Assembly: GCF_032062105.1 (NCBI RefSeq)
Contig: NW_026929843.1
Span: 38,440-102,439, forward strand
Length of the DNA: 64,000 nucleotides
Reading direction: 5' to 3'
DNA from: Saccostrea cucullata
Lineage: Eukaryota
This document shows, piece by piece, positions 47,417 through 56,344 of this stretch. Under the pieces are notes generated by a model, which was given only the letters and a program-made list of their open reading frames with translations, searched no databases and was not told the origin of the DNA. How positions within the stretch are numbered: position 1 is the first letter of the stretch; each line of letters opens with the position of its first letter. The translations under genes were made by a program, and so were the position numbers.

Positions 47417-47476
47417 AATCTGATGAAGAAGATGTAGACATGGGATTTAGTCTTTTTGATGATGATGATGAGTCAT
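47417..47476 (+). CDS. candidate exon with ribosomal P-stalk C-terminal-tail-like motif: 'ESDEEDVDMGFSLFDDDDES'
   Basis: Acceptor aatctag, donor gtacgt. Phase 1 in, 1 out. Cf. P0/P1/P2 C-terminal 'EESDDDMGFGLFD'. Confidence 0.45.
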
Positions 47477-47598
47477 GTACGTATCACATAATATCACTGA
47501 TACATTTAGTAAGTTTCAAAATTTTCTAAATTGTATTGGATAAAAATCTTTCAAAAGTTAAATTATTTTCATTATACAACTTTTTCTTTTCTCTACAG

Positions 47599-47633
47599 TT
47601 GAATTACCAAAGAAACAAGCACCACCAAAAGAA
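47599..47633 (+). CDS. candidate exon: '(F)ELPKKQAPPKE'
   Basis: Acceptor ttctctacag, donor gtaagt. Phase 1 in, 0 out. Confidence 0.4.
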
Positions 47634-48029
47634 GTAAGTACTGTGTTTTAATTATGTTTTTATCAGAATTTCCTGGTAACAATTTATATTTACTCGCAAT
47701 CAATAGAAACGCAACACCCTAATTTTAGGGTGAAAATTATATACAGGATAACTATGCACCAAAAACAAAAAAGTTATGACATCTTTTACTTTGCTAAAAC
47801 TGTTTAACGGTTGAATGATTTTCATTCCATTATCATGATTATCGGAACCGAAGTTGCTTTTTAGCCCTCTTAACAAAAATCAAAATTTTGCAATTTTATT
47901 AAAAAAATTAAACAATATTTTGGGTTTTCAAGGTTTTCTATAGGCATTAACTTACAGATAAAATAAATTTAGTATTTATATACCCCCCCACAAACGAAGT
48001 TTAGGGGGGGGTATATTGGAATCACCATG

Positions 48030-48360
48030 TCCGTCTAGCTGTCTGTCTGTCTGTCTGTGTGTAGATGAGATTTTGTCCGGACGATTTCTCAAAAACTGTT
48101 GGAAGGATTTGTCTGAAAATTTATACACATATCATTCACCATATGAAGGTGTGCACCTGCTTTTTTCATATTAATTGGATCATTATTTTGAATTTTGCGG
48201 GTGTTTTTTTTTTCATTTTTATTTTGTGGTCTTGTGCAGACCGTTTCTCACAAACTATTGCAAGGATTTATCTGAAAATTTGCACTCTTATTATTCACCA
48301 TATAAAGGTGTGCACCTGGAATTTTAAACTTTATTTGTTAATTTTTCTGCATTTTACAGG
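48030..48360. repeat. (gtct)n tract plus two tandem about 165-bp units
   Basis: 'agatgagattttgtccggacgatttctcaaaaactgttggaaggatttgtctgaaaatttatacac...' repeated as 'cagaccgtttctcacaaactattgcaaggatttatctgaaaatttgcactc...'. Confidence 0.65.
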
Positions 48361-49391
48361 TTTTACTTTTTATTTAAATTGACTTGTTCATTTTGGGCTC
48401 ATTTATAAGGTTTGAGAGATAGACTCTAGAATATCTGTACAAAAATGTGAACTAGTATAGCTTAAAACAACTCATTAAAACTAAAAAAAAGAAACATCAT
48501 CAAGTGTTTAAAACAGTTTTTACATTACATCGAAGATAATGTAAATTCATTTGTCTCTTGGGAATAATGACTGGACATGCATCCAGTTACAGATAAATTT
48601 ATGAGTTTGGTGTTGGAGGTTGTTAAGGCATATCTCTTATCAAGCGTGTGTGTGTTATCAAATCTCCAGGGAATAAGGCACAAGAATTAAAGATCTCTCT
48701 TTTCTTATTCTTTTAATTGTAATTTATTGTCTGTCAAAGCACTTCATAACCGGATGACCAGCTTTTTATTTTCAAAATGAATTTGATATATCAAGATTAA
48801 TTTGATTTTGTATAATGATTATTTTTTCAACAATTAGTTTGCAGAGTGTCATGACACATAATTGCAATATATTTCTTTAATGCAGAAATCAAAAGAAATG
48901 TTACGATTGAATTACAATGTATTAGTATTGATGTTTCATTTGGTTGCACTTTCACTTCACTCATTAAGAAACATAATGAGCATTAAGTCTTGTAAATTTT
49001 TGTAAGTAAATAGTGAACACCTCTAGATCCATAAGTATTTTTGAATTGGCACCTTCTCTGAAAAACCCAGCGGGGGGTATTTGTCCCTATTGGACAGTTC
49101 TAGTTTTTTTTTTACTTTTCTCTGTTTTATATCAGTCAGTGTGAATATTGAGGTATCTGCAATATTAATTAAGTTATTTGTAGTAATTTAAAATTTAAAC
49201 AGTGCAAGATATTATAATCCCTGTTTTGTTAAACACAAGGGTTTTATCATACAAAAGTAGAAGTATCATCCTTTTAGTTCATTTAGGGATTGTTTCAAGG
49301 ACACATTTGCAAAAGATATATTTTGATTTCATTTTATCATGAATTTATAAATATATAAATATTTATATATATCATAAAATAAAAGTTTCAG

Positions 49392-49566
49392 AAAAGAGGA
49401 CCAACTGTTCGTCCTCCCCATCGACAGAATCTTACGAAGGTGTCACGACCACCACCCTCACTACCTGTATATCTTCCCAGAGAACAGGTGCTTGAGAGGA
49501 GACCACCCCCACCAAGGGGGGTTATGGATGACAAATTCTCAGAATCAGATGATGAAGATTATGAAA
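49392..49566 (+). CDS. candidate exon, proline-rich then acidic: 'KRGPTVRPPHRQNLTKVSRPPPSLPVYLPREQVLERRPPPPRGVMDDKFSESDDEDYE'
   Basis: Acceptor aaagtttcag, donor gtttgtaa. Phase 0 in, 1 out. Confidence 0.45.
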
Positions 49567-49707
49567 GTTTGTAATACTGCTTTTTACCATGAGATATTTT
49601 TCAAAATTATAACGATCGTTTAAGAATTCTTGAACTTTTTAAGCACTTCCATTGCACAACAAAATCTATGCTATAACTCATTTTAAAATTATTGTCTTTC
49701 TAAACAG

Positions 49708-53534: not shown

Positions 53535-54860
53535 TCAGAATGCCCCATCTCTCATTAAATGCTTTTTATATGACTGACCTTTAAAAATTGTACGATAAAG
53601 ACCCCCACCCACCCCAAAAAAAACAACGTACAGTGCTGGAACTGCAATATACCTAAATTTGCAGTCCCTCACCCGCAATGGTGACCTCTCCGAATATTAA
53701 ACATCAGTGAGATATATTCAGTCATGGGGGACATTAAACATTATACAATCAATCAATCAATCTCAAAATATTTATTTTTAAAAGATTATTCACATTTAAA
53801 ACAATTAAAATTTAGGGATGTGCATTACTTTTATCTTTAAATGATTATACCGGTATATCGCGATTTTTTGTTAGTGTGATACCTAGCTATCGTGATACGG
53901 AGACCCAAATACCGGTCTTTAGGTACATATTATAAAGTCCAGAAATTATTCATTTATTTGTTCAATCTTTCAAATTACAATTACAGAAAGTATAAAAAAT
54001 GTTGAAAAAGTTAAAAGAACGGCATCTTACCGTCCAAACATAATTGATTTTATATACATAAAAATTTCAAGAAAGTAAAATTTTGCTTTTCTAGCATATT
54101 TTTTATCTTTGCTGAAAAATAATGACTATGAAAAATCAAACTGAATAAGCTACATGTATTTTAATGCCCCATCTCTCATTAAATGCTTTTTAATGACTTT
54201 TAAAAATTGTACGATAAAGATCCCTCCCTGCTCAAAGGCCGTAAGTGCTGCATGGCCTAAATTTGCAGTCCGTCACCCGCAATATGACGTCTCCGTATCA
54301 GTGAAATATTTTGGCGTATACAATCAATCAATCAATCTAAAATATTTATTTTTAAAAGATTATTCACATTGAAAACAATTATGCATAAGAGCAAGCTAAA
54401 GTAAGAGGCTTTCAAGTTACATGATTGTATAGAATCTTCGTGCTATTCAATTGAAGTTCAATTGAAGTGTAGTTTCAACAACACATTTAACGGTTTATTG
54501 CCCCAAGAATGTTATTCTTTATATTTAATTCATTCCTTAAATAAATAAAATTAAAGTTTCAGAAAAGAGGCATGTTGAAAAAGTTAAAACTACCACCTGC
54601 TTACACTACAAACAAAATTGATTCCACAATATACCACAAAAATTTCAAGAAAGTAGGGGACCACCTTTTCCACCATATTTTTTAGAAAAATAATGAGGAA
54701 TCATATGAAAGTTTTTAAATGCTGATTTTTAATATCATGATTTTATTATCATGATACTGTAAACCAACTCCCTAACAATTATGCATAAGACCAAGGAGGC
54801 TTCCAAGTTACATGTATAGAATCTTCGTGCTATTTTTGAACCAGTTGAAATCAACAACAC
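53535..54860. repeat. local tandem duplication: about 630-bp unit about 2.1 times (53535-54140, 54165-54730, partial 54770-54860), containing 'caatcaatcaatc' microsatellite and a degenerate copy of the P-rich exon (about 54545-54730)
   Basis: 'ccccatctctcattaaatgctttt...gcagtcc[c/g]tcacccgcaat...caatcaatcaatc...aaaatatttatttttaaaagattattcacatt' occurs twice. 'aaagtttcagaaaagagg...gaggaatcatatgaaagttttt' at 54553-54705 parallels exon 49392-49566 but has lost its donor. Confidence 0.6.
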
Positions 54861-54921
54861 TAGTTCGCGATGATTAATTTAATTCGAATAAATAAAATTT
54901 AACCTTTCAACCTGCTCGCAG

Positions 54922-55029
54922 ACTACCATCTGTTGTTAAAAGCACTACCACAACCACCTGGGATTAGGAGGGGACCACCACCACCACCAATGGAATCATC
55001 TGAGTCAGAACAGGAGGAATCATATGAAA
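54922..55029 (+). CDS. candidate paralogous proline-rich/acidic exon: '(x)YHLLLKALPQPPGIRRGPPPPPMESSESEQEESYE'
   Basis: Acceptor ctgctcgcag, donor gtttgtaa. Phase 1 in, 1 out. Paralog of 49392-49566 (which is phase 0 in). Confidence 0.35.
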
Positions 55030-55163
55030 GTTTGTAATACTGATTTTTACTGTGAGATTTTAATTATCATGATATAAGTCTAGAATTCTTTTACTTTTTG
55101 AAGCACTTGCTTTGCACACAAATTCTGTGCTATAATTCTTTAAATAAATGTCTTTTTAAATAG

Positions 55164-55223
55164 AACCTGATTTTCTATCAATTAACCCTGACTATGCATT
55201 ACCACCGGAAGGAGAAGTTAAGG
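55164..55223 (+). CDS. candidate paralogous exon: '(K)PDFLSINPDYALPPEGEVK'
   Basis: Acceptor tttaaatag, donor gtatgta. Phase 1 in, 1 out. Paralog of 49708-49776. Confidence 0.35.
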
Positions 55224-55744
55224 GTATGTATTATTTTGTGTCCTTCATTACAGTTGCTTTACTTTCAAGTAAAAATTCAAGACGGATTAGTAGAAGTACA
55301 CTGACTTTCAATTTTCTTGATAATTTCTTGAAAGAAAAGTAACAGATTTGATGTATAAGGAATTTCTATATTCCAAACACAATTTTAGGGGTAAATATGT
55401 TCCCCATAAAAGTATCAAGAATTTCTTTGTTTACAAAGTAAAACACAAGGTCTTAAAAACTTCGATTCAACTTTCTTTTTGTGTGGAATCCTTCTGTTTA
55501 CGTTTGAATTAAAAATAAAAATAAGGATTGACTTGCATGTGTATTTACACCATGGTAAAATTGTATGAAGTACATGAACATTCCTACTGATGATTATACA
55601 ATCATGTTACTTACTCACTTCAAGTAAAAGATAAAGAATGAGGCTGATTACAGTTTAAGATGTGACCAAAAGTAGTAAGCTGTTTTGAATTATATGCTGT
55701 AACCATGTTTTACGTTTTTTGTTACTTAACATTCTTTGAGAATA

Positions 55745-56010
55745 TTTTCACTCATATTGAGATGCCACTTGTGGTGGAGAGCTGCAAATTTTAATTTCAG
55801 ACTGGGCATTAATCAGGGCCATGGAGCAGTGAGGGATATTTTTAGCGCCAGCACCTACTGTGGCACATACCTCAATTGGTTTAGATAAGTTATCATAATG
55901 ATTTATTTGGTATCATCCAAAGATAGGTCCCCACATCCCCCTCAGTGGGATCTGAACCCGGGACATGAGGATCAACTCCTTACCTCATGACTCTTGTGCA
56001 GACACTCTTA
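55745..56010 (-). mobile_element. tRNA-derived SINE, second copy (inside the duplicated block)
   Basis: Contains 'gggatctgaacccgggacatgaggatcaactccttacc' (reverse complement gives B-box-like 'gggttcagatccc'). Matches 50205-50445. Confidence 0.5.
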
Positions 56011-56344
56011 TTCACTTACAGATTTCACGTAGTATAATAGCTGTTCTTTCAATGTTATCCTTTTAAATCTCTTTTTTCTTTAAATGTGAGCAGTCTGTTG
56101 TAGTCGTATGTAGCTCACAAGGTTAAACTTTTCTTGCTCTTTACCATATGATTTTTATTGAGCTCGGAGGACCGGGCTGCCCTGTACAAATAAGTTTTAA
56201 ATGTTGGTGTATGGGGATTGGGGTTTGAGTAGTTATTTATAGAAACAAAGGTTTTCTAAACATTGAAAAGATTGTTAATTAGAAGTTCTTTCCATTTATA
56301 AATTACGAGATACATAATATTTTACTTCCATAAAGTGAATCTGT

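Follow-up and report, generated by a model that had tools for sequence, protein, structure and literature searches.

When the same short exons recur within one locus, are the copies alternatives to one another, consecutive units of a single message, or relics that splicing passes over? We address this question in 64,000 nucleotides (nt) of the oyster Saccostrea cucullata (assembly GCF_032062105.1, contig NW_026929843.1, positions 38,440-102,439, forward strand), hereafter the window, whose positions serve as coordinates throughout. Repeated exons occur here in what appears to be the tail of an oyster PARP4-like gene, or downstream of that gene. A preliminary description of this DNA had recognized a four-exon module with partial, degenerate copies and mutually incompatible splice phases, and had proposed cassette or mutually exclusive exons, or pseudo-exons arising from an ongoing duplication. 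We consider it probable that a phase-symmetric exon cassette encoding a disordered, motif-rich tail was duplicated in tandem as a segment of DNA, and that its copies are used in series while the damaged ones are skipped.

A four-exon module duplicated together with its introns

The ancestral unit would have comprised an acidic exon with phenylalanine (A), a lysine-rich exon (B), an exon with polyproline and an acidic end (C) and an exon of the form YEKPDxLSxxPxY (D). All exons of the preliminary description are open frames at ordinary GT-AG splice sites, with a guanine-plus-cytosine (GC) content of 0.33-0.48 compared with about 0.25 in their flanks, and A1 to D1 indeed follow one another in the order A-B-C-D first described. 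The limits given earlier for A1, B1 and D1 stand. C1 (GC 0.48, flanks 0.24) probably starts six nucleotides before the proposed 49392, judging from the reading ...KE|FQKRGPTV in the S. cucullata protein model discussed below, and the exon assigned to 51325 is B2. Tandem acceptors six nucleotides apart, AAAAG|TTTCAG|AAAAG, precede both C1 (49384-49392) and the decayed copy Cps2 (54555-54563); before C1 the model takes the upstream one, and a NAGNAG-like alternative that adds or removes the residues FQ is possible.

The module is present in two colinear copies, at 47.42-50.58 kb (about 3.2 kb) and at 51.17-56.16 kb (5 kb), the B-C intron of the second being swollen by repeat insertions. In a blastn self-comparison, positions 49560-50112 matched 55023-55578 (74% identity, E 8e-101) and positions 50114-50579 matched 55677-56161 (71%, E 6e-65), which confirms the block duplication noted in the preliminary description. 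A more sensitive comparison added the A exon with the A-B intron (47424-47564 and 51174-51318, 66%, E 4e-8) and the B exon (47589-47642 and 51325-51378, 76%, E 3e-7); the C acceptor and the C-D region are colinear as well. Each exon pairs with its namesake, and the introns with theirs, in colinear matches of one orientation with E from 4e-8 to 1e-101. Global alignment of the two blocks extended the homology from about 49470/54945 to 50577/56158, with no alignment past these limits, so that the block is real but slightly narrower than the 49392-50700 and 54922-56200 first proposed. Within it the C-D intron is 75% identical, the intron downstream 84%, a short interspersed nuclear element (SINE) 74% and the sequence after the SINE 81%. 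Because the homology runs into the introns and the SINE, it reflects an event at the DNA level and not convergence of low-complexity sequence.

Copying did not stop at two modules. From 62.0 kb onwards there is a third, partial module with an expanded A-type exon, a B-type exon and, flanking the latter, intron sequence for which modules 1 and 2 have homologues in their A-B introns. Inside module 2, positions 53539-54340 are part of a local tandem repeat of about 575 bp that contains two SINE copies and has also multiplied the C exon. The earlier view of the duplication as ongoing is not borne out: the event is old (about 18-30% diverged), the copies differing by 16-34% at the DNA level, and the duplication is already contained in the S. 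cucullata protein model.

We propose that about 3.2 kb, including introns and a resident tRNA-derived SINE, would have been copied by unequal crossing-over or replication slippage. The ancestral unit of 339-345 nt would have carried one nucleotide in and one out, a symmetry by which a whole extra copy could be spliced in series with the frame kept. Further events would have added the start of a third module, A3-B3, at 62 kb and, through the local repeat of about 575 bp, further C exons within module 2. Serial repeat units would lengthen the linker and multiply its short linear motifs, and the copies that bear lesions, namely A2, Cps1, Cps2 and an F-like remnant, would be skipped as pseudo-exons.

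Table 1 Features of the window (strand and details as far as reported; residues in parentheses are encoded across a splice junction)
Feature	Position	Strand	Details
A1	47417..47476	+	60 nt; one carried nt in, one out; acidic-Phe; (E)SDEEDVDMGFSLFDDDDES
B1	47599..47633	+	35 nt; exit in phase 0; (F)ELPKKQAPPKE
C1	49386..49566	+	probable start; phase 0 in, one carried nt out; proline-rich/acidic; FQKRGPTVRPP...RRPPPPRGVMDDKFSESDDEDYE
D1	49708..49776	+	69 nt; phase 1 in, 1 out; (K)PDVLSVKPVYTRVSMAMAGGIE(G)
A2, pseudo-exon	51170..51227	+	58 nt, 2 nt shorter than A1; FEEEEDLFFGCFGDEGPI
B2	51335..51369	+	35 nt; one carried nt in, phase 0 out; (G)ELSKKEPSPIT
F-like pseudo-exon	52885..52989	+	in the B2-C intron; IKDSKDSVNNYLTCRVDSSENSITALNGSLMFKNT
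Cps1	53967..54125	+	most decayed C copy; GC 0.23; several stops
Cps2	54557..54709	+	decayed C copy; GC 0.31; in-frame TAG
Second C exon, disabled 5' part	54893..54921	+	..TFQPARRLP.. in another frame
C3	54922..55029	+	open 3' 108 nt of the second C exon after a cryptic AG; one carried nt in, one out; (D)YHLLLKALPQPPGIRRGPPPPPMESSESEQEESYE
D3	55164..55223	+	60 nt; phase 1 in, 1 out; (K)PDFLSINPDYALPPEGEVK
A3	62007..62144	+	expanded A-type exon, third module; one carried nt in; (E)DKPEPPPEQDELEMDDLFEELPEEPVPPPSIPARGRPPPPSTQAH
B3	62928..62957	+	third B-type exon; FRSKKKSIPKE; GAA|GTAAGT donor
Block copy 1	49470..50577	+	3' part of C1, C-D intron, D1, downstream intron, SINE
Block copy 2	54945..56158	+	extra ~100 bp at 55579-55676
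SINE S2	50145..50445	-	in block copy 1; tRNA-like head at the right end
SINE S3	53539-53770		within the local ~575-bp repeat
SINE S4	54163-54340		within the local ~575-bp repeat
SINE S5	55715..56010	-	paralogue of S2 at the equivalent position in block copy 2
Acidic candidate exons	35154-35207, 37002-37100, 38498-38560, 43680-43721	+	phase 0-0
Synaptobrevin-like exon	44606-44704	+	99 nt; phase 0-0; IDDIHSKMKENVEKVLERGEKLDNLTEKSQTLM
Actin-like exon	45137-45304	+	N-terminal actin fragment as internal exon

The SINE within the blocks

The SINE noted earlier in both blocks does occupy equivalent positions, and its family is represented in the window by five copies, which have a common core, and in the corresponding locus of Saccostrea echinata by at least four. 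Its placement is the same in the two blocks and its flanks are homologous on either side, so it was resident before the block was duplicated. No tRNA was found in the window copies by Rfam (46-58 kb at E<=1; 55880-56040 at E<=10) or by ARAGORN with default settings. At a threshold of 80%, which is noisy (27 calls in the window), ARAGORN reported the heads of S2 (c[50361,50437]) and S5 (c[55897,55988]), both on the minus strand. In 74 kb of S. echinata, ARAGORN with default settings made a single call, a tRNA-Leu at c[5975,6066]; it falls on an aligned SINE copy and lines up with the S2 and S5 heads, which supports derivation of the family from a tRNA and its antisense orientation in the blocks. 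It resembles tRNA-derived SINEs of bivalves in its length of about 300 nt, its tRNA-like head with a B-box-like GGTTCGAATCC, its conserved core, a (CAAT)n tail in three copies and its interspersion in two oyster genomes. It differs from them in that S2 and S5 are paralogues created by the block duplication and not separate insertions, and in that their heads are too decayed for Rfam or default ARAGORN. A SINE of this family (1137-1395) adjoins a stop-free stretch of 243 codons on the minus strand (233-961).

Probable serial use of the copies

The spliced A1-B1-C1-D1 peptide had no match in a protein search; a longer spliced chain retrieved one protein, the S. cucullata model XP_062594584.1 (641 amino acids (aa), E 7e-114), which is mis-named 'histone-lysine N-methyltransferase 2B-like'. 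At the amino-acid level this model is 100% identical to the synaptobrevin-like exon, an exon at 45670-45723, A1, B1, C1 with its leading FQ, D1 and B2. Its exon order is A1-B1-C1-D1-B2-C-D-A3-B3-F, and B2, C and D together contribute 94 extra codons. Since a single chain holds both copies of the module, the paralogous copies are spliced in series in this model and are predicted to be serial repeat units, not mutually exclusive exons. B2, which shares 76% of its nucleotides with B1, follows D1 directly; the omission of A2 agrees with the stop that A2 would create. The S. cucullata A3 is 98% identical to the window exon and ends at the donor ACA|GTAAAT. We had considered A3 as a terminal coding exon, its frame running to a TAA at 62159, and rejected this since the model continues through that donor into B3.

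Phase arithmetic agrees with modular growth. A1, B1, C1 and D1 add up to 339 nt (345 nt with the upstream C1 acceptor) and C3 with D3 to 168 nt, both sums being phase-symmetric. The phase clash described earlier is real: read in the B1 frame, B2 exits in phase 0 and C3 requires one carried nucleotide, and a B2-to-C3 splice reads ...SPITTTICC followed by a stop. A2, however, measures 58 and not 60 nt, and with it all nine exons in series do sum in frame; the obstacle is a stop, ...GDEGPIM and then TGA, across the A2/B2 junction (ATG TGA). The A2 donor is weak (score -0.6). An alternative donor, TTG|GTGATG, would give a 39-nt A2 and restore the B2 frame, yet no open C exon can be reached from there, and we discarded it. 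The chains that remain open are A1-B1-C1-D1-C3-D3-A3 and A1-B1-C1-D1-A3.

This arithmetic also bears on whether splicing chooses purposefully among the copies, with modules 1 and 2 mutually exclusive or regulated as cassettes so that tail isoforms differ in their motifs. Both C3+D3 and module 1 keep the frame whether included or skipped, and some skipping is required if the tail is translated, since B2 to C3 is out of frame in the window; XP_062594584.1 moreover has no exact-match record, as is possible where the longer isoform is the recorded one. The S. cucullata model nevertheless contains both copies in one chain, the S. echinata model likewise uses duplicated modules serially, joint inclusion is in frame as it is not in classic mutually exclusive pairs, and the lengths of the paralogous exons are unequal (175 or 181 nt against 108-169 nt, with 108 nt for C3; 69 nt against 60-78 nt, with 60 nt for D3). 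Mutually exclusive use as first proposed is therefore not supported, and we regard regulated choice in general as quite unlikely, although cassette use of C3-D3 is possible in this genome.

Lesions in the second copy

Why, then, do the copies in the window clash? The second C exon of the S. cucullata model reads FQKRGLAQPARRLPPARTLPLKGRAPQAPPQPPRREPPPPPPPPMESSESEQEESYE and starts with FQKRG in phase 0 like C1, so that no clash exists in that model. A three-frame comparison of the window with this exon (FQKRGLAQPARRLPPART...) indicates loss of the ancestral phase-0 AG acceptor, a deletion of 15-18 nt and an internal frameshift, the homologous DNA reading ..TFQPARRLP.. in one frame and ..LLLKALPQPPGIRRGPPPPPMESSESEQEESYE in another, besides further separate insertions and deletions (indels) of about 6-9 nt and substitutions. 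The open 3' part, C3 (GC 0.46), retains 76% amino-acid identity to the corresponding part of the S. cucullata exon, PPPPPMESSESEQEESYE being the same in both. D3 differs from its counterpart (..PPDVPLLRAGGDK) by a clean in-frame deletion of 18 nt. The phase clash is a consequence of lesions in the second C exon of this sequence and not a property of the module. Owing to the lost acceptor and the frameshift, a chain of the S. cucullata type, D1-B2-C-D3, meets a stop in the window. Possible outcomes are that splicing bypasses B2 and takes the cryptic C3 acceptor, that module 2 is skipped altogether, or that the allele is defective; under serial use with damaged copies skipped, splicing would presumably follow one of the two open routes, D1-C3-D3-A3 by way of the cryptic acceptor 54921|54922 or D1-A3.

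Four copies have decayed outright, in line with the earlier suggestion that some are pseudo-exons. Besides A2 these include the degenerate C copy already recognized near 54545-54730 (Cps2), which preserves the ancestral acceptor (TTTCAG AAAAGAGG; FQKRGMLKKLKLPPAYT...) and an ESYE|GT donor: positions 54545-54570 match the C1 acceptor over 26 nt at 96%, and 54695-54756 match the C3 donor region over 63 nt at 87%. Cps1 is a more decayed relative (53999-54125 against 54572-54696, 73%), and the low GC and stops of Cps1 and Cps2, set against GC of 0.46-0.48 in C1 and C3, are those of unused copies. The fourth is the F-like remnant (tblastn E 9e-5, 57% identity), whose sequence marks it as a degraded paralogue of F, which comes after B3 in the S. 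cucullata model; given the place of the remnant in the B2-C intron, the ancestral unit may have been A-B-F-C-D. In module 3, B3 shares 75% of its residues with the S. cucullata FRSKKKASPKE, and no canonical AG acceptor before it is visible in the window.

Upstream of the modules, the actin-like exon is also frameshifted in the window, within five consecutive C (about 45205-45209), so that a TGA is reached; on account of this frameshift the S. cucullata model matches it, at 100%, as two pieces in different frames. The shift may be a genuine lesion or an assembly error at the homopolymer.

These lesions raise the question of whether, in this genome or haplotype, the tail has become a null allele or pseudogene in decay, its clashes being accumulated damage that no splicing solves. 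It would account for the nucleotide missing from the C run in the actin-like exon, for the second C exon with its lost acceptor, deletion and frameshift, and for the lack of an AG before B3, and oysters are highly heterozygous. Against it, nine exons share 98-100% of their residues with the S. cucullata model and keep an elevated GC and open frames, the deletion in D3 preserves the frame, no frameshift is apparent in the tblastn matches of about 25 upstream PARP4 exons, and one lesion lies in a homopolymer where an assembly error is possible. We consider this explanation unlikely. Less probable still is that indel errors in the sequence or assembly produced the conflict and that the true genome is like the S. 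cucullata reference. The actin-like exon is shifted in a run of five C (gggacgacgcccccgagcaga) and C exons are rich in error-prone CCN repeats, as such errors would have it, but the second C exon combines several separate indels (15-18 nt and about 6-9 nt) with substitutions, the D3 difference is a clean 18-nt deletion, the upstream exons are free of frameshifts, and Cps1 and Cps2 show long-term AT decay that sporadic errors do not produce.

Several observations weigh against serial use of a functional cassette. The gene model behind it is a predicted one. With the actin-like exon disrupted too, the whole tail may be non-functional in the window, or the assembly may carry indel errors. Furthermore, the exons are less conserved than the introns between the copies: identity is 61% in the C exon and 82% in the pooled introns (Fisher p 4e-7), and 68% in the D exon (p 0.017 against the pooled introns). 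Such a pattern would not be expected if purifying selection simply acted on both copies. Rapid, indel-rich evolution of disordered sequence or decay of copy 2 would fit, though neither explains it rigorously; indel-prone CCN repeats, relaxed constraint on copy 2 and diversifying change could each contribute.

Independent duplications in relatives

The locus of S. echinata carries its own intron-bearing tandem blocks, at 31.2-41.5 and 44.6-47.9 kb (71-80% identity) and at 51.1-54.2 and 54.5-57.0 kb (77-89%). The repeats are annotated as coding in series in its protein, aa 1280-1400 with 1401-1553 and aa 1532-1589 with 1591-1661, and the Mytilus edulis protein contains a repeat of aa 1438-1538 and 1542-1642; these protein repeats were found by windowed local alignments (a blastp self-comparison gave the self match only). 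Beyond window position 34.6 kb no orthologous DNA of the S. echinata locus could be aligned except transposable elements and repeats, which precludes a base-by-base comparison of copy number, and the actin-like exon was not found in that locus. The independent repeats in S. echinata and M. edulis suggest that cassette duplication is recurrent and lineage-specific, and, as far as these sequences indicate, the normal mode of evolution of this tail.

The probable host gene and the chimeric tail

The window is AT-rich (about 32% GC) and, by its coding segments, full of introns. Between 16.5 and 30.6 kb, stop-free stretches of the plus strand encode BRCT, PARP catalytic, VIT and VWA segments. The PARP and VIT exons, used as queries, matched PARP4 fragments, the top one from Pacific oyster with 89% identity, and an exhaustive search with the contiguous VIT exon led to full-length PARP4-like proteins of molluscs: S. 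echinata XP_061177422.1 (2000 aa, 93% identity in the VIT exon), Magallana gigas K1PUC2 and M. edulis CAG2205451.1. These relatives have the Pfam architecture BRCT-PARP-VIT-VWA, in the order of vertebrate PARP4. About 25 window exons are colinear with them, which places the duplicated exons, on sequence evidence, downstream of or within the tail of a PARP4-like gene on the plus strand. Tail and PARP4 part are fused in the M. gigas and M. edulis models, whereas in S. cucullata the tail is the separate 641-aa model; A1 is homologous to aa 1367-1389 of K1PUC2.

Four short, highly acidic candidate exons lie between 35 and 44 kb, all containing an aromatic residue (EEEMEEEY, EEEEDFEEE, DDLEVYEEAYEAFE, EEAMDVDELCLESE), and could bridge the PARP4 exons and the tail. 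The S. cucullata model matches only the one at 43680-43721, where it starts. An intron contains an element of the LINE type (long interspersed nuclear element; 31100-34300, plus strand) with reverse-transcriptase open reading frames at 31496-32635 and 32639-33577; its flanks, 30711-31076 and 34319-34634, are contiguous in S. echinata (locus 55789-56500), so that the insertion is lineage-specific. In S. echinata these flank sequences lie about 29 kb farther from the preceding exon, the extra DNA coding for about 380 aa of tail exons absent from the window. Long minisatellite arrays in introns or between genes occupy 5760-6320, 19270-19870, 21740-22180 and 57780-58430. The one at 19.3-19.9 kb reads as LKLDQVSRSLQS repeats and has a conserved counterpart, likewise an array, at the orthologous place in S. 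echinata (7171-8111), and the one at 57.8-58.4 kb is similar to a repeat at 8800-10450 of that locus.

The tail itself is a chimera. The synaptobrevin-like exon encodes a synaptobrevin/VAMP SNARE motif, which in the S. cucullata model scores 35 bits with Pfam PF00957, and the actin-like exon (Pfam Actin, 35-39 bits) is kept in the M. gigas, M. edulis and S. cucullata models. A fragment of the HSP70 substrate-binding domain stands at the tail end of the relatives (M. gigas aa 1433-1532, 45.7 bits; S. echinata aa 1880-1994, weaker), the C. gigas gene being listed with HSP70-family genes in an expression study (PMC8303352). A WH2-like motif, RQSLLQSITTGQSLKKI (E 0.02), occupies aa 586-607 of the S. 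cucullata model. As the HSP70-like and WH2-like segments lie outside the window, the gene probably continues past position 64000.

A1 carries, internally, a near-perfect version of the C-terminal tail motif of the ribosomal P-stalk, ESDEEDVDMGFSLFD. It matches positions 73-88 of 88 in Pfam PF00428 (Ribosomal_60s; E 0.0032, 18.4 bits, below the whole-protein cut-off of 28.1), and its top 11 PDB matches are all P0, P1 or P2 tails, wheat P2 (4v7e) ending in the identical octamer DMGFSLFD. M. gigas has SDESDVDDLGFNLFGDDDD in the place of A1, and A2 and A3 hold degenerate versions, EEDLFFGCFGD and EMDDLFEE.

Taken as a mechanism of gene growth, the duplication is ordinary: tandem exon-block duplication with partial decay is a well-known route and implies no new mechanism or principle. 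The locus nevertheless offers a clean, datable case of how a disordered tail grows and shrinks, through a cassette copied with its introns, used serially and partly lost by small lesions. It also warns that gene predictors are prone to mis-join or split such loci, as the differing M. gigas, M. edulis and S. cucullata annotations already illustrate, and its lesions flag an allele that is possibly null or alternatively spliced. More unusual than the duplication is the chimeric tail, and the conserved actin-, synaptobrevin-, stalk-tail- and HSP70-like fragments in oyster and mussel PARP4-like tails provide the more intriguing context. It is tempting to speculate, at long odds, that the cassette belongs to a bivalve-specific tail assembled from exon-sized fragments of strongly expressed housekeeping genes, in which duplication tunes the number of stalk-tail mimics and polyproline motifs and which serves, attached to or beside PARP4, as a multivalent hub or decoy. 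If so, its targets might be, for example, translation GTPases, stalk-binding toxins or actin regulators.

Comparison with known systems

Upstream, the gene resembles PARP4, the vault PARP, with BRCT, PARP catalytic, VIT and VWA exons in the vertebrate order. It departs from it in the tail, where bivalves have acidic and proline-rich repeats and synaptobrevin-, actin- and, in the relatives, HSP70-like fragments, and where the S. cucullata annotation makes the tail a gene of its own. The C-terminus of vertebrate PARP4, which binds the vault, is replaced in the bivalve tail. The motif of A1 recalls the tail of the ribosomal stalk proteins P0, P1 and P2 (..EESDDDMGFGLFD; consensus SD(D/E)DMGFGLFD). 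In A1, however, it is internal, being followed by DDDES and at least eight exons, the host is not a ribosomal protein, and the scores lie under family thresholds; from the sequences, descent and convergence are not distinguishable.

Clusters of mutually exclusive exons, such as those of Dscam and the exon pairs of ion channels, likewise originate in tandem duplication of neighbouring exons (PMC9013439, PMC9741552). The paralogues described here differ from them in being unequal in length and in the entry phase of the C exon (0 and 1), and in that the nearest gene model has both copies. We found no evidence of a one-of-N choice, the predicted model XP_062594584.1 holding B1-C1-D1 and B2-C-D together.

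The closest parallel is tandem duplication of exon blocks, which is found in about 10% of animal genes according to a passage of PMC9013439 that cites a 2002 survey. As in such cases, the copies are adjacent, colinear and in the same orientation, the homology extends through the introns, the phases are symmetric, and some copies have decayed to unannotated pseudo-exons, as is known elsewhere. The locus is set apart by its unit, a four-exon cassette for disordered sequence and not for a folded domain, by exons that have diverged beyond their introns, and by one copy whose entry phase was changed through a cryptic acceptor.

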